A DNA stretch of 64,000 nucleotides. It comes from Macrostomum lignano. Taxonomy: Eukaryota. Shown in pieces: positions 34,111 through 64,000 of the stretch (position 1 is its first letter; each line of letters begins with the position of its first letter). The DNA lies in NCBI GenBank assembly GCA_002269645.1, contig NIVC01002657.1, positions 1-64,000 on the forward strand, written 5' to 3'. The notes below the pieces were generated by a model that worked only from the letters and a program-made list of their open reading frames with translations, was not told where the DNA came from and searched no databases. The position numbers were made by a program, and so were the translations under genes.

Positions 34111-34120
34111 ATTTACAGTG

Positions 34121-36378
34121 TAGTGTTCTGAGAAATGTGCTTGACCTTGGGATCTGCTCCCCGGACCTTTCCAAACACGCCAGTAACGTTATAGTTAGGG
34201 AAGATCTTGATAGCGATCACCTCCCTAACATTATTAAAATTTACCTCGACACCAATTGCAAACTTAAACAAAAACCACCCAAAAGATTTTGGAACACCGA
34301 CTGGGAGGCCTTCAGAGGCTCCCTCCAAGATAAACTTAGTAACAATCAGATCCTCAGCCGCAGGTTCTCAACCCCTGAAGACCTTGATCACGCGGTAGAC
34401 CTGCTCACTCAAAGCATTCATGACACCATAGACGAAGTGGTTCCCAACAGAGACACCAGGGAGCAGCTTCCCGCAGACATTATCAATAAAATTAAACATA
34501 GGAGAAAGCTTAGGAAACTGTTCAAAAAACAGAATGGATGACTTCAGAGTACAGGCAAACCAAGCCGCCAAAGACATTCGAAATGCAATTCGTATGCATA
34601 GATCCAGGAAATTTGAGAATCTCTGCACTAAAATAGCTAAAACAAGTTACAAGAAAGAACCTAAAAACTTTTGGATAGACATTAAGAAAATGACTGGGGA
34701 AGGCTATAAAAGACAGTCAATTACCCGCTCCTTGTCTACAAAAACACACGCTGAAACTGAAGCAGAAAAATCCAAGCTCTTCAGCAACTTTCTAAAAGAT
34801 CAAATGCAATGCCACCCCAAACAAGATTCTAAAATCTACAAAAGTCATAGAAACCAAAGATCATGAGATCTTCAAACCCCACAACAATATTAGCTGCTCT
34901 CTCCTACCACAAAGAGCATGCTAACCCAGAAAATCCCGAAAATGAAGACATTGAAGGTGACATTCTCAATATTACTGACCAGGATGTTCTATGGGAAAGT
35001 AGGAAACTCAAGTCAGGAGGAGCTCCTGGTCCTGACAGAATACCTAACCTAGTTCTAAAATATGGACTCAGCCCAGACTCCATCAGAGTGCTTGCAAAAA
35101 TATTTAACTCGAGCTTCCTATTAGGTTACTTCCCCAAACAATGGAAAAAACGACCATTAAAATGATCCCAAAACCTAATAAACCAAAAAGATTAGTGAAT
35201 AGCTACAGACATATCAGCCCAACCTCGTGCATTGGCAAATTGTATGAAAAAATCTTAGCTAGAAATTTTAGAATCATACTAGAAAACCTTGAAATTATCA
35301 ACGACGAACAATGTGCTTATAGATACGATCATTGCACATATGACAATATAGTAAGACTCACCGACGATGAAGTGAAAATGCTTCAGTTGAGGCAGTACAC
35401 GTTGGGAGTTTTCTTTGATGTTAAAGGAGCCTTTGATGGGGTCTGGCTGGACTTCCTTAAATATAAAAATCGGAAAAGTAAAGTCCCGCACAACATGACA
35501 CGTATTCTAGCTAATTATCTAGACGACAGAACTGTGGGGCTTGTGGTTGGCGGAGCCCGGGGCGGGGAATTCCAGCCAATGGCAGGCGTCCCGCAGGGTG
35601 GGGTCCTCTCGCCCCTGCTTTTCATCATATTCGCCAGCTCTATTCCCAAGCCTACTGACAGCAAGGTTCAATTCAGTCAGTTTGCTGACGACCTAGCCGT
35701 ATGGGCTTCAGCTAGAAAGTCCACCATGTCAGCAAAAAGGCTGAACTCGTACTTTCTAGTCCTCAAAAATGGTTAGAAAATTTGGGCATTGTTATTAATC
35801 CCTCTAAAAGCAAAGCCATATCTTTCTTTAAACCTAATGGGAATAAAACTGGTCCAGGCGATCCTCTAGTTAAACTTGGACAGGACGAAATCAGGTACTA
35901 CGAATCCGTCACCTACTTAGGGATGGTCTTAGACAAGCAACTCAACTTTAGGGCCCATGTAGACAAGGTCATCGGGTCCTCCACGCTCAAGACTGCTGCG
36001 ATTGCCAGAATGGCAAAAAACTCTAGGATATCACAATTGGCCCTTCGCCTAATCTACAGGTCTTACATTGAGAGTACCATGACCTATGGTGCTCCAGTAC
36101 TCATTAACCTTCTTGATTCCCTAGTCAATTGGCTTCAAACCCTGCAAAATAAGGCACTGCGCATCTCGATCGACGCTCCGCCCTACACTAAGATCTCTTG
36201 CATCCACCAGGTCACCAAGATGCCTATGGTCAAAGAACGGTTGCTTACTTTTGCTAAAAAATGGTACAAGAAAGCCCTGGAAAGCGATATCCATGGGTTC
36301 AAAAATGATACTAAAGAGTGTCTCAGACCCGGGTTCAGGGTCCCCTTTACCACTAAACTTAAACAACTAATTAAATAA
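34121..36378 (+). pseudogene. Jockey-like ORF2 3' part (end of APE + RT), frameshifted
   Basis: ORFs 34137-34541, 34534-34866, 34863-35165, 35141-35776 and 35782-36378 carry consecutive RT motifs. Confidence 0.9.
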
Positions 36379-39300: not shown

Positions 39301-41108
39301 TCGGTCAGGCGAACTCTCGCCGAACCGAGCGAGACAGGGTAGGAATAGCCGGGGTAGAGGGCTGGGACCGGGGTGTCTCAGGCGGGAGGGCCCGAACCCT
39401 GACCCGTCCAGCGGCCATTAGGCCGAGACACAACATTTCCTATTAGGCATGCTGCCTCATATTCCCTCTCTTTATTAGGTATTTCACCCTCTATGTAAGC
39501 ATTCCCCGTTAGTTATTGAAATTCCCCCTTACTGCGCCCCGTTTCCCAGGCAACTCTGGTCCGCCGCGCAGCCCTCCCTCGGACTAAATTTAACTATAAT
39601 AGACATGTCTTGCCGCTCGGACACTACGCCACCAGGAGTTTCCTCAGGCTTACTCCTAGTAGTAGAATTTGGACATTTTTTTTATGTTTCCCTTGCTCGC
39701 AATTAGAGTAAACAACTCATCTCTCAAGCTTCTACTGATTGTGGTGATCCAGCATAGCTAGCATAGGCTGCTCCTGGGATCCCCTCTTAGTCAGTTAGTG
39801 CTTGGGCTGCAGCAGTGGGAGCTGGGCATAGGGCTGTCCCTTCCTCCTCTTCCCTTGTGCAGGCTCAGGTGTGCAGCTGTCGCGGGACAGGGAGAGAAAC
39901 TCTCTCCCCCTCTCCCCCTGGCGCAGTCTGCAATGGGCTAAAAATAGAAACATTAGTCAGTGGGATATTTCTCCTTTAGTACAGGCTTACTTAGTCAGCG
40001 GGAGTGAGAGCATAGCTCTCCGCCCGGGGTAGGATTTCGTGGGGTCTTGGTTGCACTCCTTGCATGCGGCAACATGCAAGCAGTGTACCAGCAGGCCATG
40101 CGGAGGCTGCATGATGAGGCAGATGTCTTATGGACATCTCCAAGATCGCTCCTGGCTCCGGGTAGTCCACGGAACTGCCATGGGATCTGCCACGGAACTG
40201 CCTCTGAGCTTCCCATTGGCCCTGAGACCCCCGAATTTTAGTATAAATACAGAGTAGGTGAAGGCCCAAAGAGACCATCCTCGTTCAGGAGACGATCTCC
40301 CGTTCGGAGACCGCCTGCTTGGCTTCGAGCAAAGGCTAGATTCCTAGATGCTTTTCCTAGACGAACTAGCTTAGGCAGATCGCTAGACGTTTTCCCTAGG
40401 GATAACCTGCTAACAAACCTTTGTTGCAGCTGCCATTTGCTCATTAAGACTGCCGCAGGTCTTTGTGTCAGCAGCTCGCCAGACCTTCAACACCGTCTGG
40501 ACCTGGTCTCGTGGCCTACAACCTACACTGTTGGGCAACATCAACTGACGCACAGTACAGCTTAGGGCGTTTACTGCGACACCAGTTGAGCTACTAAGCG
40601 ATATTTTAGGATCGGCCTGTGACCGTTACTCACATTAATAAACGTTTAACTGACTTGTTTGTCTTATTTATTTTCTACTTATCAGTAGGCCTACCTAGGG
40701 GTAACCTGTCGAGGATATCACCTGTGGACCTACAAGGTGGCAGCAACCCAACTACCAATACTCGGTTATTATCTAACTGTACTCAGTGGAGACTAAGAGG
40801 GGTTAATTCGGACCATAGTGCTAGACCACTCAGGCCAGCTACCGGCCGTGCTAGATAGCGAGGACAGACAGAGGAAGTAGTAGGCAACAGCAGTAATCGC
40901 CAAGAGACGGGGATCCACAAGGCCATTACATTGGTTACATTGGTGGGATCCACAGGGATTCGGCACCAGCATTACATTGGTGGCAGCGGAGAGCATTAGG
41001 CACAGCATTACACTGGTGGCAGCGGTGGGATATCAAGACCTACCCGACCACCCAGGGAAATCCTTGTTCTATCTCGAGCCAGAAGAGAAGCCGCCAAAAG
41101 TATAACAC

Positions 41109-41126
41109 TGGTGGCAGCGGTGGGAT
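41109..41126 (+). promoter_or_regulatory. Primer-binding site complementary to the tRNA-Leu 3' end, following a putative LTR end TATAACA
   Basis: TGGTGGCAGCGGTGGGAT is the reverse complement of ...AUCCCACCGCUGCCA-CCA, the 3' end of eukaryotic tRNA-Leu(AAG/UAG). It lies 65 nt upstream of gag. Confidence 0.85.
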
Positions 41127-41191
41127 ACGGTAAAACGACCACGTCAATCCTTCGTCCACCTACGTCTTAGTCTCACTTAGTAATCATAGCA

Positions 41192-42157
41192 ATGTCTATT
41201 GCCAGCAGTCGTGCTTCAATGGCACCACCTGATGATGGTGCTGGAGCCGGAGCTGAGGCACCGGTACTAGGCGAACGTCTCGATCGTCTCGCCGATGCAT
41301 TGGAGCGCCAGCTTGGTATAGGCCAAGTCAGGCAGCATGTCAAGATGGCTAAATACACGCCGTCCCAAGACATCCGCACGTGGATCAAAGCCTTCGATCT
41401 TCGCTGCGATACCGAAGACATTCGTGCCTGCCACAGGAAGGCGGAGTTGCTCGCCAACCTTGACGTGCACACGGCGTATGCTTCGGTTCTGCGCCTGAAC
41501 TTGCCAGACCATCTGGAGTACGAAGAGTTTAAGGAAGCGCTGATTGAGAGATTCTCAAAGAGAGGCGGCTCACAGGAATTCCGAGAAGATTTCCGCTGCC
41601 GAACTCAGCGCAAGAACGAGGACATTGACGAGTTTGCAGATGCTCTCCGCGAACTCGGAGAACTCGCTTATCCTTATCTCTTGCCAGCTCAGCTCGAATC
41701 AGAACTTGTTGATCAGTTCCTGAAAGGTGTCAGAACTACAATTGAGGCGAGAGAACGGCTGTACTGGGGTCGTCCAGAGACTCTACAGGACGCCAAGTTC
41801 GCCTTCAAGCGCATCGAGACAGCGCGTGAGCTTGCTGCCCGCAGCAAAGACGCACCCTGTCGCAGCCTTGGTGGGGACAAAGCTACGGTTCCCCGACAGG
41901 ACGATGAGCTTAAGAATCTAATCAGGCATCAGAATGAGGTTCTGCAGAAGCAGCAGCAGATGCTTGAGCAGCTTCTCAAGCAGACGCCAGCCGCACCTGT
42001 CAGAGATAGGCTGCAAGGCATTGTGTGCCACGAGTGCGGTAAACCAGGCCACAAGAGGCCTGACTGTCCTAAGTTCAAGGCTCAGAAGCCGGGAAACGTC
42101 CGGGCGGGGGTTGCCAACCAGGACCCTCTCCAGGGCCAACCCCCGAAGTCGCACTGA
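41192..42157 (+). CDS. gag: Ty3/Gypsy Gag with CCHC zinc knuckle
   Basis: 321-aa ORF directly after the PBS; retrotransposon gag-like region (FRCRTQRKNEDIDEFADALRELGELAYP) and CHECGKPGHKRPDC. Confidence 0.92.
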   Translation: MSIASSRASMAPPDDGAGAGAEAPVLGERLDRLADALERQLGIGQVRQHVKMAKYTPSQDIRTWIKAFDLRCDTEDIRACHRKAELLANLDVHTAYASVLRLNLPDHLEYEEFKEALIERFSKRGGSQEFREDFRCRTQRKNEDIDEFADALRELGELAYPYLLPAQLESELVDQFLKGVRTTIEARERLYWGRPETLQDAKFAFKRIETARELAARSKDAPCRSLGGDKATVPRQDDELKNLIRHQNEVLQKQQQMLEQLLKQTPAAPVRDRLQGIVCHECGKPGHKRPDCPKFKAQKPGNVRAGVANQDPLQGQPPKSH

Positions 42158-45100
42158 AGCAGTCTGGAGAGTCTGGCGATACCGTAGACTCTTCCTTTGT
42201 AAATAATGTATATAACTCTGGTGCTGATCCTTATGTAACTGCGCTTATTTTCGGCCAACAGGTTCCCTTGCTTCTCGACAGCGGGAGCAGACTGAACCTG
42301 ATGGGCCTTTCTACTTGGCGATTCTTATCGCGCAGTACTGCACATGCATGCGTAGTTACACCTACTTATTCCGATCGTATTCTAACCTATGATGGTTCTG
42401 AATTACAGCTAACCGGTAAGGTTATGCTTGATGTTGTCTTCGGAGATTTCTCAGCTGAAGCTGAATTCTACATTGTAAGCGGCGATCAGGAGAATCTCCT
42501 AGGCATTGATTTTATGAGGAAGCACTGTCGGACCTTGGAGTTCCAGACAGGAATGCTTACCCTCACTACTGGTACTTGTGTACCTGTGCGCTATACGCGC
42601 CGTGAGCCAACCTCTTGCAGAGTCTATGTTGCCGGAAAACATCAGATTCCTGCTCGAAGTTCTGGCCTTATATCTGTGCAACTGGCACGTGGCAAAGAAT
42701 CGAATTATGGAGTGCCAGCAGTGGTTGAACCACTTAGATCTGGACTCCGCGCTGGACTTTCCCAGGTCCGCGCATCTGCAGCATTGGTAACGATGCATGA
42801 AGGCAAAGGCTGCATGGAAGTCGTTAATCCTAACAACTTTCCAGTTAATATAGCCAAAGGAGCCTTGGTGGGCCTTGCCACACCGCTCCGGACGCAAGAC
42901 CTCGAGTACTATCCAGAACTGAAAGCAACACCTGTGCGCAAGTTGCACCTAGACGATAACGTCAATTCAGCCAGTGACGATTGGATCAATGAGATAGAGA
43001 TAGGCGATTCGATCACGGAGGACCAGAAGTCCCAGGTTCGAGAGCTGATCAGAGAGTCGCGTAATGCGTTCTCTACGCACACTCTTGATCACGGTCTGAC
43101 TCACCTGGTGACCCATCAGATCGTCATGCGGGACGAGACTCCAGTTAGGATTCCAGCTCGCAGGGTCCCCCCGCACCTGCAAGATCAGGTCAATCAGCTG
43201 CTAGATGAGATGCTAGAGAAGGGCTTGATCAGGCCATCTTATTCAAGCTACAGCTCTCCTATCTTAGTAGTGCCTAAGAAGGATAAATCAGTCCGCATAG
43301 TCCACGACTATCGCGAGCTGAATGAGAGATGCGAATATCGTCCATATCCGTTGCCATCTATCCAGGAGACGTTTGCATGTCTCCGTGGATCTCAATGGTT
43401 CAGCAGCTTGGATCTTGCTCAAGGATTTTATCAGATCCCGTTGCGTGAAGAGGATCGTTTTCGCACAGCCTTCTCAGTGATCAATCGAGGTCAGTTTGAG
43501 TTCAACGTCTTGCCTATGGGGCTTCGCGATAGCCCTGGAGCCTTCCAGCGATGCATCAATATGCTGCTAGACGGTATCACTAAGTTCGCCTTAGGATACA
43601 TGGATGACATTGTCATTCATAGTATTGCCTTCGAGGAGCACCTCGAACATATTCGCGAAATGTTCAGGCGGCTCATTGAAGCCAATCTTAAGCTAAAGCC
43701 ACGCAAATGCCATCTGTTTAAGACAGAGTTGCACTATCTCGGACATGTAGTCGATAGACGAGGCATTAGGACTAATGAAGACAAGGTACAGCAGATACTA
43801 GACTGGCCGCGTCCTCAGACAGTCAAGCAGCTGCAGAGCTTTCTAGGTCTCTGTAACTACTATGCCAAATTCGTCAAGAATTACGCCGAAATTGCTGCCC
43901 CGTTGCATCAATTGACTCGGAAGAACCTTGTTGGGTTCAAGGGGCTCTGGACAGAGCAACACTCGAAAGCTTTCGATGAGCTCAAGAAGAAGCTGTGCTC
44001 TACTGAGGTCCTCGCGTACCCAGAGTACAACACAGACCCAGACACAGTCTTCGTCCTGGATTGTGATGCCTCAGGTTTCCGAATCGGCGCCTGTTTAGGC
44101 CAGCGCCAATCCGATGGTGCGGAGCGGCCTGTTGCCTATTTTAGTCGGAAATTGCGCGAGCCTGAAACGAGGTACAACAACACCAAGCGTGAGCTTTTGG
44201 CCGTTGTTGACTCGATGAGGCACTTTCGTTACTACTTAATCGGCAAGAGATTTGAGGTTAGAACAGATCACAGGGCTCTTCTTTGGCTCATTCGCCAGAC
44301 TGAAGCCGAAGGGGTCCTCGGAAGGGAAGTTTGCACCAGAACGCAGACAGCTTATCAAGAAAGCCGGACGGTCCGGAGTTCGATGACTGTCGTCCTGGAG
44401 CACGGACACCCAACCAGACAGAAAATGAGGCCACTGTACCCTCAGCCCTCGGATTAGTCGAAGACGCCGACCAAGTAACATCCAGCAGTTCTGCCTCGCA
44501 GGAATCTCGTATTGCCGTCGCCGGCTCATCATGTTGTCCCTCAGTGGACCGATGTCCGACACCCGTTATTGCGGCCGTTTCTGCCGACTCAACATGTTGT
44601 TCCTCAGTGAACCGTTGTTTGGCTGGAGCGTCCGAGGCTGTCTGCCAGACTGATGCGACATGTTGTCCCTCAGTGGACCGCCGCTCGGAATGGGCAGCCA
44701 AGGTTGCTGGTTTAGCTGTGGACTTTGCCCCAGTTGGACGCCACACTACCGCACCTACGGCCATAGAAGCTGTTCGCCCTCGTGTCTCAGGTGACCTGAC
44801 CGCAGGAATCCAGACCGACGACGCAGCAAGGCCATTATCTGCTTCAATAACGGAATCAGCGAACCGTAGCGTTAGTGAGGATGTTCCTCCACGCTGTCGT
44901 GTTCTGCTTAGTGATTTTCTGTCCGAACCTCTGAAGCGAGACCAACTGCTCCTCGAGCAGCAGAAGGACCCGGACATTGAGTTCGTCAGAAATCTTTTAG
45001 CGACTAGTTCGCCCAAGCCGTCCTTTGACGCCCGACTACGTCTTAGTAGGGATACGCGCAACCTACTAGGCTACTTTGAGAGTTGCGGCTAGTAGACAAC

Positions 45101-46600
45101 CTGCTCGTCTACGATGAAGACATAGCAGACCGTCCACCGCGCATTGTGCTGCCGAAGAGTCTAGATGACCAGGTGTTCAAAGAGCTCCATGATGCTCCCT
45201 TGAGTGGACACCTTGGCGAAACTAAGACCTATCTTCGGGTTAGACAAAGGTTTTGGAGGCCGTCTTTGAGCAAAGCGGTTAAGGCCTACGTGGCCCGATG
45301 TCGGGTCTGCCTGGAGAGCAAGACTCGCCGTCGCGAAGCTGTGCCCGTGCAGAGCTTCCCAGTCTGTGAAGTAATGGGACGGCTACACTGCGACGTTGTC
45401 GGCCCAATCTCGCAGCCTGTGCGATGCTACTTCAAAATACCCTTTTGCGTTCCCTATGCGGAACCAGAAGACCAAGACCGTAGTCAAGATTCTTCAGGAA
45501 AGATTGTTTCCGGAGTACGGTGTACCGGCGTGGCTGCACACCGACCAAGGAACGAATTTCACTGGAAAGGACTTTAAGAAGTTTTGTGAGCTGTACGGCA
45601 TTAGGCACACGACTACAACGCCGTATAATCCTAGTTCGAATGGCCAGGTGGAAAATCTCAACAAGACAATCAAGAGTGTACTCACGTGCTTGCTGGAGAA
45701 GAATCACCAAGATTGGGATACCTTCCTCCCAGCATGCATGATCGCTCTGCGATCTAGCGTTCACCCGGTTACAGGGTTTACGCCCTACTTCTTGGTCTTT
45801 GGAAGAGAATATCGGATGCCCATTGATAATGAGCTTCGGGTCCCACCTGAATATCCGGACTTGCCAACGTACGTCCAAGACTTCCAGAAGAGACTAGAGG
45901 AGGCTAATAAGTTAGCCCAGGACCGTGTGAAGCTGCATCAAGAACTTCGCGATGAACATTATGAGAATCGCCCGAAGGCCAAGCAGCTCTCACCGGGTGA
46001 CCTAGTCTTCCTGAACAATCCAGTCTTAGATCAGTCTTGGGAAGCGCAGAAATTTCACAGACCACGCAAGGCTGTGTATGAAGTAGTAGAGCGCAAGGGA
46101 GAAGTGGTCTACAAGATCAGACCTCGCCTCCGGAATCCTAGGGCTCGTCGAGAGGAGTTGGTGGTGCACCGTCGCAATATGCTACCGGTTCCGCAAGCTG
46201 ACTATCCAGAGCCGGCTGGCCGGGCAGCTGAGCACCGTGCTGGGCCGCCGCATAAGCGTCGCGTTGCCCTAGAAACCACTGCCCCTCAGAATACCGGCGA
46301 AGCCGCCGATGACGTTGACGAGCTCGATGACGATGATGATGACTGGGCTCCGCGCTACTTTCTGCGTCCGGCCGCAGCATTAGCAGCGATCCCTGAAGTC
46401 GCCGAACCTGAAATGAATGAGAATGGGGAAGCTGTTCATGAGCAACCTGAAGCACACAGGGAAATAGAACAGCCCGAAGCGGTGCCCCTGGACCCTCAGC
46501 CTGTTGCTGAGCGCCCACAGAGAGACCGCCGAGCCCCGGAGAGACTAATGCTAAATCCTAGAGCTAAATCCTATGTCTCTCGAATCAAGGATGCCTTTGT
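42091..46600 (+). pseudogene. pol: Ty3/Gypsy Pol (PR-RT-RNase H-IN) with three internal deletions/frameshifts
   Basis: LLDSGS, VPKKDKSVRIVHDYRELN, LDLAQGFYQI, YMDDIV, VLDCDASG, FEVRTDHRAL, ELHDAPLSGHLG, CRVC, LHTDQGTNF, NGQVENLN. Frame breaks at ~44325, ~45080 and ~45420. Confidence 0.93.
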
Positions 46601-49600
46601 CTCTACAATAAGGCACTATCTTCCGCATTCAAGCCTCATCATGAGCGATTCGGACATGCCTCTTGAGCAGCAGCTGTCGCTGTCTGCCTCGGACGAGTCA
46701 TTTGACCCGAAGGACGTGTCGTCACCGCGCCCCGATGCGGGACGTGTAACGACGAAACCAGCGCCAGTGCCATCGAGCCCACAGGTCGTGGCTCCCGTCG
46801 GGATAGTGAGAAGGGCGCTGCTTCAGGTCGACACGAACATACAGGCCGCAGCCGGACCTCAGACAGAGCCGGCGCAGCGAAGGACGGCCTTGCTGGACCG
46901 TCCCCCGTCTAGAGGACGAGGCCGGACGATCTCGGGCACCTCAAGGAGCCGCTCGGGGCAGCGCGCAGCCAATTGGCGGTCCACAGAGCATCTTTCAGTT
47001 CAGGATCGGCTGGGAAAGCGCAGCGGCTCCCCCCCGCGGGAGGCAGTGCCGACTCACGGCGTAACAGCCTGCCAGGCGCAGACAAACAAGCCACTAGAGA
47101 ACATGCTTGTCTCCGTGTTGCTGAAGGCCGCCTACACCGGGGACATAACAGCTTGGCCCACGCCCCAGGTAGTAGCCTTAAAGGCCAAGACGGAGACCGA
47201 ACGTCAGGCATTGATCAATGAAGCCTTCTGCCGGACTCGTACTCTTCTGTTGCCGTACCGGCACCACGCGGTTGCCCTAGAAGCTGCGGTACGTCGGGCT
47301 GCCCAAGACCTCGGCCGCATGGCGGTTCTCTCACCTGAGGCCTTGGCGCTGCTGAACACGGCGAAACCGGCTCACTATAACATGATAAATTTATCACTTT
47401 TGTACATGTTGTATACTAACTACCCAGTCTATAAAAAAATACATTCAAGATTTAGCTGAATGCTTTGTAACGCATGTGCAGTAAATTTTTGGATTACGAT
47501 TGCTTCGTCCAAACTTTCACTTAATGTTACATATGGCTAGGCAGTAGGCTCTTCTTGGACCATTTAGTGGTTACTGAATGTTCTCTTTTTAAAGCTCCAT
47601 TGGTAATTTTAAAAAGTACCAATTTGTGTAATTTGTGTAGGACATCATCTTTTGCGTCACATTTAGTTAATAAATTTTTGCTATAAAAAAGAGCTAGCTT
47701 ATTTTATGTCGCAACAGAGGGAGGGACCCGCTTGTCAAAGAGGCCTACAATGCTATAGCTATCGAGCCAAATAAGCCCACTAGTATTAGCGTATATATTA
47801 ATGGAAACTTTTACAACCCAGAGAAACAATTTTTCTACATCGGGTAATCATGTTTGTAAACTTACAACTGGCGATTTTTGCTCTATTCTTGAATTTTGAC
47901 CCTCAAAACATGCTCGTGTGCGCATCTTGCATCCAATTGGTTCACTCTTAGATCAATTTAATGTGTACTACTGATTGAAATGATGAAGCATATTTATCTG
48001 AATGGCGTTCTACACTGCATTCAAAGTTTAATAAAGTTATCATATATTAAGGTTGATGTGAATGCCAACAGTTATGAAATGTAATTTTTCTAAGCGAAAT
48101 TTTGCGTCCCTGAATAGCTGTGCCAATCAAGCTGATTGATTCAAGTACATTTGTCTAATTCCCTTATGCAGCGAGTTTGAGCGCGACTGAATTTAATAAT
48201 TGCACCGATTTTCTGCTATGTTTTGTTCTTTTGCTTGCCAGGAAAACAGTTTAGCAGCTGTTATGCCATTTCAGGGCATTTTGAAAAACTTTTTCATCGT
48301 ATTTGCTATTTCAAGTGGTATTTGACATTCCCTTACAATTTTACCGACGTAAGTAAACAACATGTATTCTCGATAAAATATACTAATCTCTATGCATCTG
48401 GACATTAGGAATTAAAAAATTCAGAACCTGTCCCACGTCCTAATCAAGCATGGCATTGAGTCTTGGACTTGGACCCCAAGTTTTTTTGGACTTAACTAAA
48501 GTATATTTAAAAGAAATAATCGATCGATGATATAGCAACAGAGAGTTGCTAAAATGATTTTGTGTTGCAGTCATTAAGTGTACAATACAGTGCACATTTT
48601 ACGAGTACTTAATTAATTCTTACTGAATTGCTGCCGTTAGGCCTAATGTTAAACGTTTTACATTATTGTTTATTTGTGTTTTAGTGCCATTACGTTTGCA
48701 TTGCAGTACACATTATTAATTTTATTTTATTTATTACTAAATTGTGGCCTAAAGGCTTAATGGTAAACGTCTTCAATATAGCGTTTCTATGGTTTATTTG
48801 TGTTTTAGTGCCAATATGTTTGTTTTGAAAGTATGATCATTGCTTAGAAATAAAAATAAGATAAACAAAGCTCGGCCTTTTTATATCACAAGGCCTAGTA
48901 TATATTGGTTGACGGTGATTTCGTCTGGTAATTTTCATATAAAGTCATTTCGTCTACCAATTTGGTCACTTCGTCTACCATGAAAATTTTCACATCTAAA
49001 ATTCATGCTGATACATGAGTTGTGGCACTCAACTTATTGTGAGAAATTTTAATCCAATACAGTATTAATTTGTTATAAATATAATTCACAATAAATTTGA
49101 ATACAAAATTAAACGCGGCATTCAGTGCACTTTTCGGTACACATTAAGTATTTATTTAATTTATTACTGATTGCTGCCATGATATTGAGTAAAAAGCAAA
49201 ATTCTATTTTGCCTAATCAATCATACTATCTTTACAGAGCCTAATAAATTCCATGAGGATTTATGCAAAGCATTGGTTCTAATACACCATTGAAAAAGTT
49301 TAAAAACACTTCTGGAGCCCAATTGAGCTTAAGCATATATACAGTGGTCATTGTAAGACTTTTGCGCATACTCACGTGCCTATATAGTAAAAGAGCATTA
49401 TTATAGTACTATCAATCTAATAATTCTGGAACAGAAGCTGCAACGTATAGCGCCTTCCGTGAAAGCACGAAAATAACGACCGAGGACGCAGTCTTAGATC
49501 ATTTAAGGCACACACGCACTCGAGTCAGAAAGCAGAACGAAAAGTTGCTGTCTGGAAACGAGACTGGTGCCGCAGCTCCTGAGTCTTTGGCAAGTTTGAG

Positions 49601-52455: not shown

Positions 52456-53019
52456 CGATGAATGTATACATATATACTTGGGCATGTATACTGGGAATTG
52501 GTAGAAACACTGTATATGGCTCTATAAAGGTCTATGGCTTTTAACTGCCGGTAGAGTTTTAGAGTAAAAATGAAAGCCTGTTGTTCTTAGCATTGTTTAT
52601 TTGTTTAGCATGTGGATGAACACATTAATTCCACTCTTCATTTTCGGCGACTCTTTGGCGGCGACTCCGCGGACTCGAGTCTGATGCAGCAGTGGAGCTA
52701 GAGGAGCTAGAGGAGTGCGGCAGCCACTATCTGGAAAAGTGCGTGCTCCTGGGGCAGTGCGGCAAAAGACACTAGATGGCCTCGGGAGAAAGTTCTGGCG
52801 ATTTAAAGAAATATGTAACCTTTGACTTTGACAAAGTCAAAGGCTTGGGATTGTTCTATAGATTGCGGTTGGGTCTCTTCAGAGGTGTATTGGTGAGCTG
52901 ACTTCACCTGACCAGGTGCAGTTATAGGATCAAAGTGAAGCCTGAGGTAGAAATTTTGAAAACTTAATTTTTTCACATGAAAAATAAATTTCGAAAATCA
53001 CATTGCCCCACTAGATTTT

Positions 53020-53345
53020 GACTCGCTGTCACGCCTGCAGACATAATAGTGTCAATTTTAGTGTCAGACGTGCTTGCAGACGTCATAGTGTCAATTGCAA
53101 TGTCAGACACGATTGCAGACGTTATTGTGTTTTAGCAGTGTCGGACACGCTTGCAGACGTAATAGTGTCTGTGGCAGATTCAGACAGGCCTGCAGACGTC
53201 ATAGTGCTTATTGCAGTGTCACACACGCTTGCAGACGTAAAGAGTGTTTTTAGCAGTGTCGGACACGCCTGCTGACGTCATTATGTCAATAGAATTGTGA
53301 CACCAATGCAGACTTTATAGTGTCAATATAGTGTCAATATAGTGT
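53020..53345. repeat. Degenerate ~40-nt minisatellite (GACACGCTTGCAGACGTCATAGTGTC core)
   Basis: About 8 diverged copies. Confidence 0.8.
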
Positions 53346-54333
53346 CAATTGATCTGATGATGATGGGGGTAAAGTGAAGGGGGAGAAGGGGATATAGGGG
53401 GCAAGCCAATAAAGGAAAAGACTCGAGACTTTTTTAATTGAGACTACACTTCTTATTTAGTATTTCTAAATAATAGGAGCAAATAATAAACAGCTGTTTG
53501 CCTTGGCTTTCAATCATTTTTTTCTTTAAAGATCACAAGTTCTGTTCATTTTCAGCACTGATGCAGCGCATCTTTAAGAAAAGTCGGCCGGTGCCAGCTG
53601 CAGCCTCGCCACCTGTTGCAGACCCGGCACCGGCTGCATCTTCTGCAGCTCCTGCTGCAGCCCGGCCACCTGCTGGAAGTCGGATGCTGACTACTAGCGT
53701 TCGTGCTTTTTTTCGTAAGTGCAGTACAGCCAGTGGTGGCAGAACCAGGCTATAGATTTCCAGCAGAGGCTGCAGGCAGAGAAGGCCGTGCGAGAGCACT
53801 GGGAGGCTAGAGCCCTCGCCGCAGAGAGTGCTCTCGCTGTTGCGACACCACTGCCAGCGCCTGCTGCACCGGTGGGTGCGCCAGCTGTGCCGCCGCGGCG
53901 CAAACCACCCGCAGTTGGTGTCTCTGAGCTGACGAGTCAGGGGCTGGTTTTCCGTGAAACTGACACTTATAGTGCCCTGATCTCACTGCTCTATGACTAA
54001 AATTAAAGTACCTTCTTCAAGGCGATATCTTTTAACTCCGTCGTTGCCGGTCCGAAGCCCGGATGCAAAAGGAGGGAAAGAAAATACATGCACTATGTCT
54101 TTTCAGACTGCGGCCAGCTTAAAATTATCGTGGCATGTTCCAGTTAAAATGTTCGATTATGACTTTCTGTCTGTCTTTCTTGTTTTTCTTTTTTAAATTT
54201 TACTATCATAGTAGAAGCCAGTACAGGCACTGTGCACACGCAGGTTCGAAAGCCTAGTTAAAGGAACAAATCGCAGATTTACACGATATACAGTATTATT
54301 GAATATATTTATACAGTCTTATTTATTAGCAAT

Positions 54334-54426
54334 AGAGCGTTTAGCGATTAGAGCGTTTAGCGATTAGAGCGTTTAGCGATAAAGCGTTTAGCGATAAAGC
54401 GTTTAGCGATAAAGCGTTTAGCGATA
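54334..54426. repeat. 15-16-nt tandem repeat (AGCGTTTAGCGAT[T]A)n
   Basis: 6 copies. Confidence 0.92.
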
Positions 54427-55467
54427 GAAGTAGTAGTATGATATAAGGGGCTGCGCCACACTTATTTCTCGAGCGCATTGCGCGCCAGCTCGCTGGATGA
54501 CTCAGCCCCTTATATCATACTTGTGGCGGCCCAATCAGCATGCAGCCAGCGATTGCGAGTACATCTGCACTGAAACCCCCTGCCCGCCAGACAGACAGTC
54601 AGTATGCTAAGTCGGGGGGGGGGGGGGGGTTGGCCTTCAATCGTTCCACCTTTTTGGCGCACCTCCCCATGTGATCGCGTGCTTATTTATACTTACCGCG
54701 TAAAGCAAATAAACTTTCACTTTTCTCGCTTGCAACTTACTTCGTTTTCGCAAGCCGCTAAATACTACTACTACCAGGAGGTCAGTGTTGCAAGGTGTGT
54801 GTGATAAGTATATATATATTTCTTATATATATCTATATATATCTTGTGTGAGGGTGTTGAGGGTGAGGGCATGTGGGGGCATTGGCATGTGAAATATTTC
54901 ACAGAACACAGCTTTTTCAGACTCTTTTAAAAAAGGAGGGTGCCCTCGCCCTCATGCCCTCACTCATTTTGAAAATCACTCAAAATAAGTAAAAATGACT
55001 TAAAACAGGTGAAAATGGTCTGAAAACACCAATTTTTTGTGATTTTAAAAAATTTTGAATATGTGCAATTTTCGTGATTCCAGCTCTAAAACCATGAGAA
55101 AAGTTGGATTCACGGGTCAATTCAATACAATTTTACAATAGTAAATTATGTATATACAAAATGGCCTTCAAAAAACCATTATTTCTAGGAAATGCTTTAG
55201 ATATTCAGTCAGCTATAACAAAACTAGCACCCATCTGGAAAATACCCAGAACTTCATATACCCTCATAAAATTTCGCAGGTGAGCTCAGTAGGGAGGTAG
55301 CAAACAAACCAAACAATACAACACACAGTACCACTCTAAGCCCGCGCGCAGACTGCCACAATGAATCGAAATTTTAGACTGAGTGGAGTAGGTAGCACAA
55401 TGCCGTTACTACACCCACACAAACCCTTTTTCAAGCTCACAAGCTGCAGCACGAATCTAACAATTAA

Positions 55468-56385
55468 AAGCATTACTATATAACCAGACGCGAAGCTGTT
55501 TTACTCGTCTTATCATTTCGCAAGATTAGACTGACACACTATAATTTAGGATTATACTACAGAATTGATAACGCTATTGAAATTGCCAAATTATTTAGTG
55601 AAGTATCAAAACGAGACCAAAGATCTTTAACGATAGAACTTACTAAACTATCTGATGAGGAGCGCCGAGCTCTTTTGAAATCTTCTAAGAAACTGGATCG
55701 AGCCTTTAGTGAAAAGACGAAGAAAGCTAAGAAGAAAGAGAAAGAAATCGACAAAAATGAGGAAGTTCGCCGATTCCTTTAACGGCTACAAGCGAAAATA
55801 GAGGAGAATCTTCGCAATGATGTTGTTGTTAAAACACGATTCGATGGACTTGAGGATCTTCGGCCGATTGATGACAGCGAGGATTTGGAAGATTCCGAGA
55901 TTCAGACCCGGTTTAAGGATTTAGTTGAACTAGTTGAGGATTTAGATATCAACAAATGTCTAGCCAACTTTGCCCAAGGACGTCTGATCATCTATCTACA
56001 ACAAAAGAGAGGTCTTACTCTAGCCGCCATCGCTATCAAACTCAAGATAGCCATCAAGTACACCGAACGTCTAGCCAACTTTGCAAAGTTTGCATCGCGA
56101 TATCGTGGTCTACTCTGCTCATCATACTCCATGGATACCATCATGAAATTCAAGTCGGCTATTGAGCGCCGTTGTGATGAGAACGCCAACTTTGCAAGCC
56201 TGCTTGAAGAAGATCCACTTTCAACATTTAGTGGAGGCTCTGGTGTGCAAGATGACGCTTCAACTTCACCAAGACGATCACATGTTGCAAGTGCTTCAGG
56301 ACGATCTGACGTGACGGAAATGGAAGAGGATGATAATGAGCTTCTCAGCAATGACTTGCCGCTGTTTCGAAATCTTCGTTTTTGA
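55468..56385 (+). pseudogene. Unknown protein (Lys-rich N-half, helical C-half), one in-frame stop at ~55779
   Basis: The frame is open from 55468 to 56385 apart from a single TAA; the amino-acid composition looks coding. Confidence 0.55.
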
Positions 56386-56918
56386 ATAGTAGACTTTCCT
56401 GTATTGTCAGGAATTCCTGTAATGTCAGGAATTGTCAGGAATTCCTGTATTGTCCGGAATTAGCGCGAGCTTAAAAATATAAACCATCTCTTTGCGAATG
56501 TGCTCAAGCTGAGTCAGCCTTCCTTTGTGTCTGAGACTCTTTTGTTGTTCCAGTCTTACTCATTTTCTACCCCATAAAATAGAAGCTGAAAATGAATATA
56601 ACAAAAAATACAATGACAGACTTGGGTATAGATATGAAAATGAATCCGCACAAGGAGAAGGCTTTACATCTTTGCTAGGCTCAGTAGGCAATTTATTTTT
56701 TTCAGAAAGATTTAAATTTATCTTTTACTAAATTGCCTACTCTGCCAAAGAACCACTCTGAGTCCTAATATAAGCAAAGAGGTCATGCAAGTTTCAAATA
56801 ATTTAAAAAATAGTTTGTGAATTAAAAAATGAAAACTAGATGGCAAAAATTTTCCTAGAAAAATGAAAGCTAATAACCCAAATGTTCAAAATTAACTGCC
56901 ACAAAAATATTATGATTC

Positions 56919-57202
56919 TATTATAAATCTCTCTCAAATAAAAACACCCACTCGAAAGGCTCGACTAATTCAAGAAATTGATAAAGCTTACGATGAATAT
57001 AAAGCAGAAATATTAAAACACACCGATTGTAAATGCCCCCATATTTGTATTCATTTAGAGTATTATAAATCTCTCTCAAATAAAAACACCCACTCGAAAG
57101 GCTCGACTAATTCAAGAAATTGATAAAGCTTACGATGAATATAAAGCAGAAATATTAAAACACACCGATTGTAAATGCCCCCATATTTGTATTCATTTAG
57201 AG
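56919..57202. repeat. Exact tandem duplication of 142 bp
   Basis: 56919-57060 equals 57061-57202. Confidence 0.93.
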
Positions 57203-57310
57203 TATATCTTGCACATGTTGATAAATGGGCATTGATTTCGAGACAGCAAATAAGGAATGATGAATTTTTCGTCATGCTGAAATTGAACATTTTCAAACTC
57301 CCCATAACCC

Positions 57311-58021
57311 TTGAGAAGTACATTGAAACCGATAAATTACACTATTAAATTAATTCGTAATAAAATAGAAAGAAAAAATCAAAACGATTCAAGTGTCTCT
57401 CCTGTGATCGTACAGGATCCGTTTCAAAACCATGATGCACCACTGCCAAGATTGACAAATTTAAAACAAACAAAATCGCACGATAAACTAATTAATCTCT
57501 ATGGAGAACGCAATTTTATATTCGGAAGTTGCAGTATAGCATGGAATAGTAGAACAAAGAAAAAATACCGTCAAGAATGCCAACCACAGAAGATTGGTTG
57601 AATTCCACAGAGGAATTCAACCAATCCACCACTTCGACCAGAGGTAGATAACATGATTTGGATAGATAAGAAAAACTCAAATATAACCGTAATCGATATT
57701 GATAATGCTGACCTATGCCCTGAGTTTAATGAACTGTGTATGACTCATTGTGATTGGATTGTTCAGACAAACAAGGGTCATCACTTTTACTTTAACAAGG
57801 TAGATAGATTAAAAGTAACGATTCAACAAAGTGTGGGTTTTGATATTCTGGCTTTAGTATTTGCTCCACCAGGTTTCTATTATGTCGATGGTGAAATTAA
57901 GGAATACAAACATTTAAAGTGCGATGCAATTATACACATACCAGATGTAATTCTTGAGGATATAAATAGATTAATTAAGCCACAGGATAAAAAAACCAAG
58001 AACCCGATAAACAGGCACTAA
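57311..58021 (+). pseudogene. Bifunctional primase-polymerase (Prim-Pol, AEP superfamily) N-terminal domain, one premature stop
   Basis: ORFs 57311-57601 and 57602-58021 are in the same frame, separated by one TGA (KIG*IPQ). Motifs NITVIDID (57689-57703), QTNKGHHFYF (57764-57793) and GFDI..LVFAPPG fit the Prim-Pol DxD, His and third motifs. Confidence 0.78.
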
Positions 58022-58129
58022 AAAGTACCGGTCCATCACCCACTTGTGAAGGAGTTTTAAAGTTGTTAAGTATAATACAACACAAAATTTAAGCGAACAC
58101 ACTAAAAAACAAAATTACGATCCGTATAT

Positions 58130-61100
58130 TACTGGCAGCATTCTAAATAAGGAGGTGGTTTATCTATTAGACACTGGAAGCAATAGGAACATTCTAGGAC
58201 GTGAAACTTGGAAACATTTGTTAACTGGCAAGAATAGTCACTTAATTAAGCAGTGGAACAATAGAATCGTGTCATTCACGGAAGAGCTGATTCCAATTAA
58301 AGGTTCCGTAGTTATTAAGGCAACATTCGGTGATTTTGAAGAAGAAATAGAGATTCTTTTATGTGACGCAGAAGTAGACAATGTAATAGGCGTGACGTTT
58401 GTCCAACAATATTGCAATGCTATCGACTTTGAGGCAGGAATGCTAACTATGAAGCAGGGAACTAGGATTCCACTTCGTTCTACCAGAGCTAAGCCTCAGG
58501 TTAAGAGAATCTATGTTGCAGAAAAGACGACAGTTCCATCTAATACTTCAGGATTAGTCAAAGTTAGATTAGCCACAGGTAGTGAGTCCAATTTCGGAGT
58601 GCCGTCAGTTGTTGAGCCACTCAGATCAGGATTAAAGACTAGAACAGAGAAAGTAACTTTAGTGCCAAGTTTAGTAACTTTGAGTCAAGGGGAAGCTTAC
58701 CTAGAAGTGATTAACACCAGTTCACAGTAAGCTAGAGTGCCCGCATCAGCACTAGTAGGAATGGCTAAGCCACTGTTAGCTAGCGAATTAAACTATCTTA
58801 AAGATCAACCAGAGAAAGAGCAGTCATGCCAGAATAGGAACACGCAGTTGTGCGAAAACATCAGACAAGTGCAAGAGAAGTCAGAAGACTGGATTAGTGA
58901 AATCAACATAGGAAATGAACTGACACAGGAGCAGAGACAGAAGGTGATCGAGGTCGTCAAGGAACATTCAGCAGCTTTCTCGCAGCACGAGTTAGACTTA
59001 GGCAGAACGCATTTAGTCACATATGAAATTATCTTGAAGGATAACAACCCAGTTCAGATACCAGCTAGGAAAATTCCACCTCATTGGATCAAGGAGGTAA
59101 ATGAGCAGTTAGATCTCATGTTGGCTAGAGGCATCATTAGGCCTAGTTACTCGCAGTACTCGACCCCATTAGTCATAGTACCTAAGAAGGGTGGTTCGCT
59201 GAGACTAGTTAACGACTATCGAGCACTAAACAACAAATCGGAGTACTTTCCGTATCCAATAACTAATATTAATGAAACATTCTCATGTCTTCATGGAGCC
59301 AGTCAATTCTCTACGTTAGATCTATTCTCAGGGTATTGAGTACGAAGTTTTGTAAATGGGATTGCAAGGAGCTCCAGGAACTTTTCAAAGGTGCATGAAC
59401 TTAGTTCTTAAGGACATTGCACAAAAGTTCGCCATAGCTTACTTAGACGATGTAATAGTTTATAGTACAGACTTTGAATCTCACTTAGAACACCTGAAAG
59501 AAGTGCTCAAAAGACTAATCCAAGCTAATATGAAACTGAAAGCGAAGAAATGTCACCTTTTCAAATCAGAACTGCAATATCTAGGACACGTCATAGGCAA
59601 AACAGGAATTAAAAGAGATGCGTCAAAGTTAGAAACGATTAGGAACTGGCCGAAACCTAAATCTGTGACAGAGCTTCGAAGTTTTCTCGGACTCTGTAAT
59701 TATTATCGAAAATTCGTTAGAGATTTTGCCGAGGTAGCAGCACCACTCTGTGAGCTAACGAAGAAGAACATCAAGTGCATCCAGGACAAATGGACCAGGA
59801 TTCATGATGAATGCTTCGAGCTGTTGAAGGAACGGATGTGTTCCGAAGAAGTGCTTGCTTACTCAGAGTTTAATACAGACCCCCAAGTTTACTTTGTGTT
59901 AGACACTGATGCATCAGATGTCAGAATTGGGGCGGTCTTAAATCAAGTACAGAGCGACGGAGTTGAGAGACCGATCGCGTATTATAGCCGAAAAATGAGG
60001 CAGTCAGAAAGTAGATATCCGATTACGAGAAAGGAGCTTCTAGCGATTGTTGACTCGCTGAAGTACTTCAGGTTTTATCTCGTAGGGAAACGTTTTAAGG
60101 TGCGCACTGATCACAATGCCCTAACCTGGTTGCTTCGCCAAACCGAGCAGACAGGCATTTTAGGTCGTTGGATCGAGAGACTTAGTGAATTTGATTTTGA
60201 GATTGAGCATAGAAGTGGCCCTAAGCATGTGAATGCTGATGCTCTATCCAGGATCCCGGATCCTCAACAGGATGAGTCATCCCCATATGCCAGGTCACTT
60301 AGCTGTAGGGCAACTGTGAACACAGACCCAGCATCAGCCGTTACTGTGAGCTCAGGCAATTCCGCGCAAGCCGAAACCTGTAGTCTGCACAGTGGAGTTA
60401 CGTCATGCTGTTCGCCGCAGAATATGGCACCGAACCGACACAATACTCCGAGTTTTAGTAGCAGGTTGCTAAGCAAAAAGCAGGAACAGGAGCCTAAGGA
60501 AAGGTACCCGCTTGTTTGCAATGCACTGCTGAGTGATTACCTTCGTAGCCCAGTGCGTCGCGAAAATTTGGTCGCAGCTCAGCTAGCCGACCCCGCACTA
60601 AGCTATGTCAGGAATCTGATTGAATCTGACTTGCCGAAACCGAACTTTCAAGAAAGACTAGAATTGTCTCACGAGATTAGAAATCTGCTAGGTTACTTTG
60701 AACTCTTCAGGATAGAGGACGGTGTTCTCCGAATAGACTTAAATTTAGGGCGGACCGAATCTAAAGTGGTGTTGCCTAAGTCTTTGGATAGTGAAGTATT
60801 TCACGAATTCCACGATTCACCGTTAGCAGGTCATCTAGGAAGAGATAAGATTATCAGCGAGTTAAGGAAAGATTTTGGAGAGTAGGATCAGCTACAGCAG
60901 TCGAAAAGTACGTCGCCAAGTGCAAGTCCTGTTTAGAGAGTAAGTCAAGGAAGCGATGCAAGGCACCAGTGCAGAATTTTCCTATTGTCGAGCCATTCTC
61001 ACGCCTATAAATTGATTTGATAGGTCCGATCAGTCAGACTAGCAAATCTGGTAACAAATATGTCTTGTCAGTTATTGACAGCACTAGAAAATTTCCATTT

Positions 61101-62174
61101 GCGTTTGCAATTAAAAATTAGAAGGCTAAGACAGTAATTAAAATTCTGCAGGAGCGAGTTTTCGCCGACTTTGGAATACCTCAGTGGATTCACACAGATC
61201 AGGGAACACAATTTACAGGGAGAGCATTTAGGAAATTTCCAGACCTCTATGGGATTAGGCATACTAGAACAACAAGCTATCATCCACAAAGCAATGGGCT
61301 AGTAGAGAATTTAAACAAACAAATTAAGTCAATTCTTACCTGTTTGCTCGAGAAAGAACATGCGAACTGGGATGTTCTATTGCCCGGTTGTATAACTGCA
61401 TTGCGCACCAGCACGCATACAGCCACAGGTTTCAGCCCGCATTATCGTGTGTTTGGAAGAGAGGCCCGGATGCCGTGTGACAACGTGTTCCAGCAGCCAA
61501 AGGCGTTCGCCGATCTGCCTGCTTATGTTCAAGAGCACTTGACTCACCTGCAAGAGGGGCAAGACCTCACCAAACAGCGGCTTAAATTAATACAACGTAA
61601 GCGTGAGCAACACTATTCTAACAAACCAAAACAACCATACTTACCTATAGGGAGCTTAGTTTTCATCAAAAACCCAGTCATCACACAGACAGAAGCCAAC
61701 AAGTTCCACAGGAAGAGAAGTGCAGTCTACGAGGTCATAGAACAGTTATCAGAAGTAGTTTACAGGATTAGACTATTAAACAAAAATACTAGGGCTAGAA
61801 AAGAGGAATTAGTCATGCATAGGGATAATTTACTACCAGTACCAACAGCCGATTACGTCAGTGAAGAAGAAAAGCCAGAAAGCAGTTGTGCCAGGCGACC
61901 GAAACTTCGAGAAAATGTACCGCTTAATCCGATGTACGACGCAGCCGACAGTGAGAGTGAGCAAGAAGAAGAAGTGCAGTTTGTGCCAGTGCAGAATCAG
62001 AATAATGTTCCAGTACCAGTGCAGGTTATGCCAGTGCAAGTTATGCCAGTACAAGAAGATAATCTACCAGTGCAAAATAATAATGAGCAGCCAGCAGTCG
62101 AAACTAGACCAGTTAGAGATAGACGGGAGCCGAGTAGATTTGTGATAGACCCAGGCCGGAAGAGCTACGAGTAA
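58130..62174 (+). mobile_element. pol: Second Ty3/Gypsy pol remnant, related to the 41-47 kb element; gag and LTRs absent; stops and deletions
   Basis: LLDTGS, VPKKGGSLRLVNDYRALN, AYLDDVIV, VLDTDASD, FKVRTDHNAL, FHDSPLAGHLG, IHTDQGTQF. It shares FGVPSVVEPLRSGL and AYxExNTDP with the first copy. Confidence 0.92.
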
Positions 62175-62637
62175 GTTAGTTAGCTATATTCTATTGCTTG
62201 CGAGTTTTGATCATTTCGCGCATTCGCCCAGTCTGTCCGCTTCGTTTGATTGTTTCTGGAATCCTGGATTATGATAAAATGTGATTGAACGTGTGATTGA
62301 ACTGGAATATAGTCTGCGCCGTGTTGATTTATACTTGATTGATTGATTGACGCGTATTGGATTCATTCAATTGGCGCGTTCACAAAATTTCTTCATTCTA
62401 TTTCCATTTTAACTTTCAAATCCAACGCCTAATTAATTTCATCAGTCTTTTTCTTTCCCTTGTACTTTCAAACCACCCACCAAACCTCAACTCCGCAGTC
62501 GCTTACCCCCCTCCACCGCTCACCATTCTGTCCCCAAAAGCCCCAACCCCCACCCCCATCCTCTCGCCAGCCTGGCCCCACCGCCCAACACTACTTTCAT
62601 TGATCGATCGAAACCCCTAAACTTCCACGCACGTGAT

Positions 62638-62742
62638 CTTTTAGCCCGTCTAACTAGCTAGCAAACCAATTTGATATCAAATGTTGAACGCACAACGGTC
62701 CGTTGTACGCACAAGACGACGATGTGCGGTCGGTTATCCACT

Positions 62743-62773
<31 letters not shown>

Positions 62774-62830
62774 CGTGTACAAACGCGGCGCTCTCTCTTC
62801 CAATTCCATACTATATAGATGGGCTAGGCT
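62638..62830 (+). mobile_element. Helentron/DINE-1-like non-autonomous element (HINE-like)
   Basis: T-rich start; TAGCCCGTCTA (62642-62652) pairs with TAGATGGGCTA (62816-62826, 1 mismatch); the two enclose a (CTGT)n(CCGT)n microsatellite at 62741-62776. Confidence 0.6.
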
Positions 62831-63534
62831 ACCACCACCACCACGTTGTATTTTGCCAACCCTCTCTCTATCACTCTGTGCCTCAATAGATTAAATGTGT
62901 CAGACAGACACAAAAGAAATTGAATGTATTATTAATTAACCTTTAGATAAATTCGAATTCCAGCCACAGCCAACAGATCGACCATTTATTATAAGCGTTA
63001 CAACTAATCCAACATCTAATAATCATGGATAGCTAGCTGGCGGCAACTTGACCAATTGAACAAGTGAGTATATGCCTGTTTATATTAACAATTATAAAGA
63101 ATCCATGCTACCAAAAGAATCCAAAAGAATAATAACATACTACTAAACATATCATGTTAAACCGAAACTCAAACAGCAGTATTTCAACACTCCCTGATTT
63201 AAGCTTGGGTGCTTTAATTCGGCTTTTTTATATAATTAATTTAGTTTACTTATTAATTGTCATCCGCGGAGTTTTTAGAAGTCTGCGTAACTTCTGTATT
63301 TTATCTATATACTTTATAGCGGCGCGAGACTATTATTAATTTGTTGATCCCTAGCCCAATTGTTGTGCGTTAAGACTAGCATTTGACGGCTAATCCTATA
63401 TGCTTCAGCAATACTGTTTGGCATCTAATCCCATATACTCGTACTTTTGGACTTATAAACTATAACACATTGTTCTACCATAGATATTTTGTTTATTAAA
63501 TCACAACTTAAGCAACAGTGTCAGTAGCAGCAGT

Positions 63535-64000
63535 GTTGACTGATGATATGACCCCGATTGATTCTGGTGATGTGACCCCGTTGACTGGTGATGTGACCTT
63601 GGCGACAGGTGATGTGACTCCGATTGAGTGGTGATGTTACCCGATTGACTGGTGTTGTGAACAAAGTGACTGCTGGTGTGACATACTTGACTGGTGTTGT
63701 GACCTGATTGACTGGTGATGTGACCATGGTGACTGGTGATGTGACCGTGTTGACGCGATGTGACCGTGTTGACTGGTGATGTGACCATGGTGACTGGTGA
63801 TGTGATCGTGTTGACTGGCGATGTGACCTGGTTGACTGGTGTTGTGACTCCGATTGAGTGGTGATGTTACCCGATTGACTGGTGTTGTGACCATGAAGAT
63901 TGGTGATGTGATCAAAGTGACTGCTGGTGTGACATACTTGACTGGTGTTGTGACCTGTTTGGCTGGTGATGTGACCTGATTGACTGGTGATGTGACCATG
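63535..64000. repeat. 21-nt minisatellite (GTTGACTGGTGATGTGACC.. core), runs off the window end
   Basis: About 20 diverged copies; the minus strand reads as VTSPVNx or HITSQxG heptapeptides. Confidence 0.93.

Follow-up and report, generated by a model that had tools for sequence, protein, structure and literature searches.

A broken virus-type Prim-Pol segment beside a gag-less Gypsy pol in an animal-like genome

The Prim-Pol segment and its surroundings

The window, i.e., the whole 64,000-nucleotide stretch of DNA analysed here, carries on its plus strand two collinear open reading frames that together form a Prim-Pol segment. ORF1 (57308-57601, 97 aa) is matched by relatives from about 57443 onward, over the first helix and strands of Prim-Pol, and ORF2 (57602-58021, 139 aa) holds the catalytic core, with the DxD, His, and Asp motifs kept, and stops short of PriCT-2. 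A TGA at 57599-57601 divides the two, and the frame is the same on both sides. The first-pass annotation had described this pair of frames, and the four motifs it had singled out are all present within 57683-57871: ITVIDID (57683-57703), TNKGHHFYF (57767-57793), GFDI (57836-57847), and VFAPP (57857-57871). It had also called the segment AT-rich and intronless, and rightly so: the GC content is 33.9%, against 45.6% for the window, and tblastn of the relatives spans 57443-58006 across the stop with no intron-sized gap.

What broke the gene between its two halves? The TGA had been read as a former TGG, i.e., as one nonsense change at a conserved Trp. However, Trp is absent from the stop column in the closest relatives, which are 5-8 residues shorter there. 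The broken linker (57554-57645, plus strand) contains the TGA and a palindrome with 10-bp arms that starts at 57598. When its three frames are compared with seven relatives, the summed local scores are 131, 135, and 174, and the frame scoring 174 shows a conserved Met-Pro. This frame is preferred to that of the ORFs by four of the seven relatives and by one more only slightly; one is tied, and one goes against it by 7 points. The predicted model has a pLDDT below 50 at residues 91-102, which are those of the linker. The alignment and the frame scores led us to reject one nonsense mutation of a conserved Trp codon. Given the missing Trp, the better score of another frame, and a model that is unreliable exactly there, two frameshifts are likelier than one nonsense change, on moderate evidence.

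Downstream, the homology ends before the helicase. Neither PriCT-2, nor D5_N, nor an SF3 helicase gives a tblastn match past about 58006-58050 or anywhere else in the window, and a Gypsy pol follows at 58119-62174 on the same strand, about 100 bp from the Prim-Pol. The order protease, RT, RNase H, integrase is present in this pol, which is interrupted by stops and frameshifts; its protease is a weak Pfam match (E 0.044), with 43% identity to the other Gypsy element in the window. The gag of that other element has no match here, nor was an LTR or TIR pair detected around the pol. These data agree with the earlier proposals that the helicase was lost where the Gypsy remnant starts (∼58100) and that the segment is endogenous and broken: the frames are split by a stop, and the gene is truncated before the helicase, of which no remnant was found in the window.

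The upstream side offers a candidate left end. An (AGT)3 motif of the Maverick type lies at 54429-54437 (plus strand), with a reverse copy at 54764-54772 (minus strand); two matches to this motif type occur in the window, where 0.30 are expected, and 4 of 100 shuffles reach as many. The 54429-54772 pair lacks a flanking 6-bp duplication. A hairpin at 54435-54521 (z -5.2, 0 of 200 shuffles), with the motif at its foot, has very high depth, and many contigs omit about 54517-54761 and continue into the reverse motif. The motif is nine bases long and sits 3 kb upstream of the Prim-Pol, no listed contig connects the two, and the motif could be part of a separate miniature repeat. Beyond it, an AT-rich, high-depth stretch (54900-55283, plus strand) holds the start of a short ORF at 55161, has no Pfam match, and is left by the other copies at 55236.

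A second broken gene occupies 55468-56385 (plus strand; 104 and 200 aa in one frame, with one TAA), at a depth below that of the Prim-Pol. No relatives were found for its larger ORF (55783-56382), only weak helical or HTH leads with fewer than 170 shared features; a 39-residue low-complexity match was dismissed, and the model (pLDDT 54) gave no fold match. At 55687 the depth is 2.3-2.6 times that of the flank in three runs and 14.5 times in run X7; that X7 is RNA is no more than a guess, and this excess is therefore left out of the argument. As for rearrangements here, one contig in three runs returns to 54991 after 56566, and an X1 contig omits 55237-56858. Finally, a perfect 142-bp tandem duplication (56919-57202, plus strand) lies within small ORF remnants and is absent from one X7 contig (joint 57037-57178).

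Of the genes expected in a complete Maverick, neither capsid (MCP) nor A32 ATPase was found among the ORFs scanned in 54000-64000. The sole rve integrase belongs to the Gypsy pol, so that no rve integrase or tyrosine recombinase of the element's own was detected, and the window contains no Maverick protease. No TSD was found, nor a TIR partner or right end up to 64000, although a right end could fall beyond the window.

The rest of the window is almost entirely repeats. A shattered pPolB gene at 11170-14204 (minus strand) matches PF03175 with E 3e-6 (11688-12032) and 0.036 (12556-12921), has a weak Endonuclease VII match, and is likely a second, GC-richer Maverick remnant. The second Gypsy (40000-47459, plus strand) has gag, with a zinc knuckle, and pol, and additional sequence follows in its integrase frame; inspection by eye shows an LTR-like stretch and a PBS-like motif repeated several times upstream, with no 3' LTR partner. 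Long ORFs of 159, 630, 145, and 529 aa at 28563-32976 (plus strand) include a CIDE-N domain (E 1e-7). Pfam has no match for the 630-aa ORF, which resembles an EnSpm/CACTA-type transposase. P-element-like and piggyBac-like transposases (Pfam), a mariner-like piece, and several non-LTR remnants (by eye) are found at 20198-22103, 6065-7191, 8324-8770, 592-5830, and 25255-36378. Tandem arrays lie at 53014-53324, 54333-54425, 56385-56458, and 63543-64000, with units of 39, 15-16, 18-28, and 21 bp.

Relatives and fold of the Prim-Pol

The obvious check, a search with Pfam Prim-Pol (PF09250), gave a weak answer: ORF2 matches below the gathering cut-off (E 0.0018, 19.2 bits against 22.8), and the read-through with X at the stop does not match Pfam at all. 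The relationship comes instead from phmmer, with which the unfiltered X read-through retrieves 64 proteins at E ≤ 1e-3 and five at E ≤ 1e-10. The best match is P0003 (E 8.7e-26, 40% identity), and the best relatives are 33-43% identical. Thirty of the 64 were scanned with Pfam, and 20 of these have at least one of Prim-Pol, PriCT-2, D5_N, and DUF5906; by family, Prim-Pol (E ≤ 0.001) occurs in 17, PriCT-2 in 15, D5_N or DUF5906 in 11, and SF2 helicase in three. Two have SF2 only and seven no family, and P0010 proved to be a repeat-driven false match; P0043 was dropped for the same pattern with no Pfam scan.

No cellular primase, protease, or RT family appears in the 30 relatives scanned, and no cellular primase is among the top fold matches in PDB and BFVD. 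A cellular eukaryotic primase as best match, the outcome that would have spoken against a viral gene, thus did not arise, and both a cellular primase and a host gene were rejected as identities of the segment. In the nine-row alignment D130, D132, and D179 are invariant and the His is present; these are positions with catalytic roles in this fold. The best relative, P0003, has a Tyr in place of the motif II His of the others.

The predicted model (pLDDT 73) points the same way. Against PDB, the top four matches are of the pRN1 type (E 3e-3 to 2e-2), none of them significant at E 0.001. The top solved structures are those of pRN1 ORF904 Prim-Pol (PDB 1ro0, 1rni, 3m1m; probability 0.99-1.00, E 3e-3 to 9e-3), an archaeal plasmid enzyme that is only 12-13% identical. 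Against BFVD, Foldseek returns mimivirid and phage primases with E down to 8.5e-10. The best of these are D5-family helicase-primases of mimivirids (Bodo saltans virus, Homavirus), with TM up to 0.59; they differ in their low identity of 16-22%, and no giant-virus neighbours are recognised at the locus. In the protein atlas, the corresponding domain of P0003 falls among Prim-Pol clusters.

Other searches were empty. Unlike phmmer, a word-index search with residues 60-237 of P0001 against longer proteins found nothing, PHROGs gave no match to P0001 or P0002, and a pattern-based scan of prokaryotic genomes with A4 produced no relative. Phage records match P0003 solely outside the primase part, among the 15 of 222 matches listed. 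All in all, it is confirmed that the segment is more than a chance likeness to Prim-Pol, and the domains of its relatives and the fold matches bear out its description as a virus-type Prim-Pol, usually joined in one protein with PriCT-2 and a D5/SF3 helicase.

In a 65-row tree the window's Prim-Pol groups with P0003-P0006, P0067, and P0068 at 99/97 (FastTree 0.98). P0010, P0043, and P0069 had been kept out beforehand, P0017, P0026, and P0050 were too short, and the loci L006, L007, and L009 were left out for want of a domain match. The tree was built without named Maverick, giant-virus, or cellular sequences, so it defines the clade and not the donor. Members of this clade have a shortened loop after motif III, reading GFDxxxL instead of DIRxDxG.

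On what kind of genome do the relatives sit? A metagenome scan returned two short loci, and for the window's own clade no locus exceeds 3.2 kb and none has a capsid. In L002 the helicase part is 67% identical to P0003 and the primase runs off the contig end; this helicase part faces an ORF with a homologue (E 2e-22) next to the primase-helicase gene of the viral contig L005. From its motifs, the L002 ORF is presumably a tyrosine recombinase. It has no match in Pfam, PHROGs, or PDB, and none in the window.

Among viral contigs, a scan with A4 yielded seven loci out of 52 pattern matches, all of them distant (21-27% identity), and scans with ORF2, P0003, P0004, A3, and P0006 yielded no locus. 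These wider relatives sit on contigs of 5-27 kb. L003 carries a Sputnik-type minor capsid, and its primase gene equals the match P0022; L008 has an A32 ATPase and a weak capsid match; L007 comes from a GVMAG-named contig; L009 is phage-like and matches in the helicase alone; and L004-L006 have no capsid match. None of the three viral loci placed in the tree falls inside the window's clade. The virophage-type contig L003 also encodes a ribonucleotide reductase small chain (6058-7023, E 1e-96) and a glycosyl hydrolase 18/fn3 protein.

Copies in public sequencing runs

Part of 55000-58400 is contained in 20 of the 24 listed runs, which come from eight studies (2015-2024) and are all labelled organism A; the share of the stretch is 0.30-0.44 in 14 runs and 0.13-0.18 in six. 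In four runs, from four studies, which were compared in detail, all 30 bins of 54000-63000 are covered, and the unique left flank has depths of 22.5, 210, 27, and 6.6. Contigs over the Prim-Pol and the Gypsy pol reach about 4-7 times the depth of this flank. In X3 (flank 210) single contigs have depths of 1181 (at 57340), 1219 (close to the end of ORF2), and 1176 (across 58116-58336), and in X1 the values from Prim-Pol to integrase are 166, 141, 152, 87, and 135. The X1 contig of depth 152 differs from the window at 62 of 452 letters and may represent another subfamily. Prim-Pol and Gypsy pol thus seem to be present in several genomic copies, bearing in mind that contig depth is not equal to copy number. 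Contigs of up to 641 nt occur at several times the flank depth, which implies near-identical copies.

The copies are not all alike. Where the window's pol has two of its stop codons, the contigs carry another letter, so that the window's copy looks more decayed than others, and deeper contigs show indel differences near the end of ORF2. An X7 contig departs from the window at 57913 and continues with 255 unlike letters, and a deletion form, 56925-57877, which removes most of the Prim-Pol, occurs in all four runs, one contig each. Across the junction itself, no loose contig end lies at 58020-58120 among the 24 listed (569 others exist). An X3 contig (58001-58236) has 11 other letters and seven gaps relative to the window and must be another copy or allele; as it includes just 21 bases of ORF2, it spans the join only if the two parts meet past about 58032. 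Compared with the first-pass annotation, what is new is that the segment is repeated, that it has a Maverick-type motif upstream, and that it shares a depth class with the Gypsy pol.

Origin and meaning of the composite

Several known systems resemble the locus in part. The AEP-SF3 primase-helicases of PLVs and virophages have the same N-terminal domain and motifs, at the identities given above for the best relatives; in contrast, the window's copy is broken, has neither PriCT-2 nor helicase, and belongs to the shortened-loop clade, for which no capsid-bearing locus was found. AEP-S3H fusions in PLVs are on record (PMC11071308). For insect-associated PLVs, PMC11296320 outlines end modules of primase-helicase and tyrosine recombinase, replication genes close to the ends, and gene exchange with nucleocytoviruses, and for vertebrate Mavericks (AGT)2//(ACT)2 is given as the commonest end motif (PMC8097293). 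Closer to an animal-like genome, a preprint (bioRxiv 10.64898/2026.06.19.733378) reports that animal group 2 Maverick-Polintons often have, in place of pPolB, an SF1/SF3 helicase with either a polymerase or an AEP PrimPol fused to it. Compared by description, these elements share with the window the animal-like genome, PrimPol for pPolB, a putative (AGT)n end motif, the lack of introns, and the repeated state, and their PrimPol may belong to the same subfamily; they differ in what the window lacks, i.e., MCP, mCP, ATPase, an rve integrase of its own, a TIR pair, and a TSD. In the case of Ngaro retrotransposons in endogenous virophages (PMC8547959), a retroelement likewise lies beside or inside an endogenous DNA virus, and one reported insertion sat in the primase/helicase gene; the window differs in having a Gypsy pol with neither gag nor LTRs, in an animal-like genome, as a pair seemingly repeated together. 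The accessible portions of PMC11131425 and PMC6431247 hold nothing on this layout, and among the literature titles covered, an incomplete set, no primase-Gypsy or Maverick-Gypsy hybrid was found described.

The segment is probably the broken N-terminal Prim-Pol part of a primase-helicase gene from a Polinton/Maverick-like integrating DNA virus; it has lost its helicase and was likely copied passively with a gag-less Gypsy pol. In the intact ancestor, judging from relatives and literature, the AEP domain would have started and extended primers, the fused SF3 helicase would have unwound the template, and the gene would have lain near the element's end. Into or next to this gene a Gypsy element probably integrated; helicase, 5' LTR, and gag were then probably lost in a deletion, and either duplication of the DNA or Maverick enzymes working in trans probably multiplied the composite. 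The copy in the window is probably dead and reads best as the replication end module of such a virus. In favour of a Maverick/PLV-like donor are the best relatives, which are Prim-Pol/PriCT-2/D5 proteins, the virophage/PLV-type contigs among the wider relatives, the candidate end motif at 54429, and the agreement of Prim-Pol and pol contig depths in X3; in addition, the pPolB remnant at 11170-14204 suggests that Maverick-type elements exist in this genome. Against it, the best structural matches are giant viruses. Membership in a Maverick is unproven, since capsid, ATPase, own integrase, a TIR pair with its right member, and a TSD were not found in the window. The original idea of an endogenised piece of a dsDNA virus or mobile element therefore stands as far as virus type, endogenous state, and breakage are concerned, whereas its claim that Prim-Pol is foreign to animal mobile elements was overstated: the group 2 Maverick-Polintons of the preprint are reported to carry a PrimPol-helicase.

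Could the donor instead have been a giant virus (Nucleocytoviricota, mimivirid-like), a fragment of which integrated and was then duplicated, the (AGT)n hairpin being an unrelated miniature repeat? The top Foldseek matches are indeed primases or helicase-primases of Homavirus, Bodo saltans virus, and Harvfovirus (E 8.5e-10 to 1.1e-8), the related locus L007 is on a GVMAG-named contig, and PLVs and nucleocytoviruses are described as swapping such genes (PMC11296320). However, the identity of these matches is low, as noted, no giant-virus genes were recognised among the neighbouring ORFs scanned, and two of the seven viral loci have virophage- or PLV-type morphogenesis matches, so that we consider such a fragment unlikely. 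As for an assembly chimera, or DNA of a contaminant, food organism, or symbiont, the AT-richness relative to the window would fit, as would the fact that no listed contig covers the whole stretch. Yet 20 listed runs from eight studies with one organism label contain part of it, the four compared runs cover every bin, a contig that differs from the window spans 58001 to 58236, and the pattern-based scan found no relative in prokaryotic genomes. Contamination is unlikely because the stretch is present in public runs of four studies; the warning that it could be a contaminant or a chimeric join finds no support in them, and we regard this explanation as very improbable.

A more daring proposal is a working hybrid, in which the virus primase takes the place of gag, and the Gypsy pol gives RT, RNase H, and integrase; the primase would perhaps make the primers that normally come from tRNA and the polypurine tract. 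The layout invites it: Prim-Pol and pol lie on one strand, about 100 bp apart, without gag or an LTR pair; their contig depths are similar, with near-identical copies implied; and the pol stop codons and ORF2-end indels differ in other contigs, so that some lesions look private. On the other hand, none of the 30 scanned relatives has a protease or RT domain fused to it, and a particle would not be expected to form in the absence of gag. A nested insertion together with a deletion accounts for the layout in a simple way, one contig diverges after 57913, others delete most of the Prim-Pol, and retrotransposons within endogenous virophages are already on record (PMC8547959). We judge a working hybrid to be quite unlikely, and hold the same low expectation for its young, multicopy form, with Prim-Pol replacing gag before a complete Gypsy pol and behind a Maverick-type end; such a DNA-virus/retrotransposon chimera would prime by means of its own primase and integrate through the Gypsy integrase.

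What does this probable remnant of a Maverick-like gene tell us? By itself the finding is modest, because the gene type has already been reported for animal Mavericks, as the preprint (bioRxiv 10.64898/2026.06.19.733378) indicates. Nevertheless, a divergent Prim-Pol clade whose other members in this analysis all come from short environmental contigs is now seen in an animal-like genome, and this clade points to an undescribed Maverick/PLV-like family in the host. If the Prim-Pol and the gag-less pol move as one, the finding would weigh far more, since two replication systems that were not found described together in the literature covered would be joined, and if the hybrid were true, it would be a live example of how Polintons could gain a retroviral integrase.
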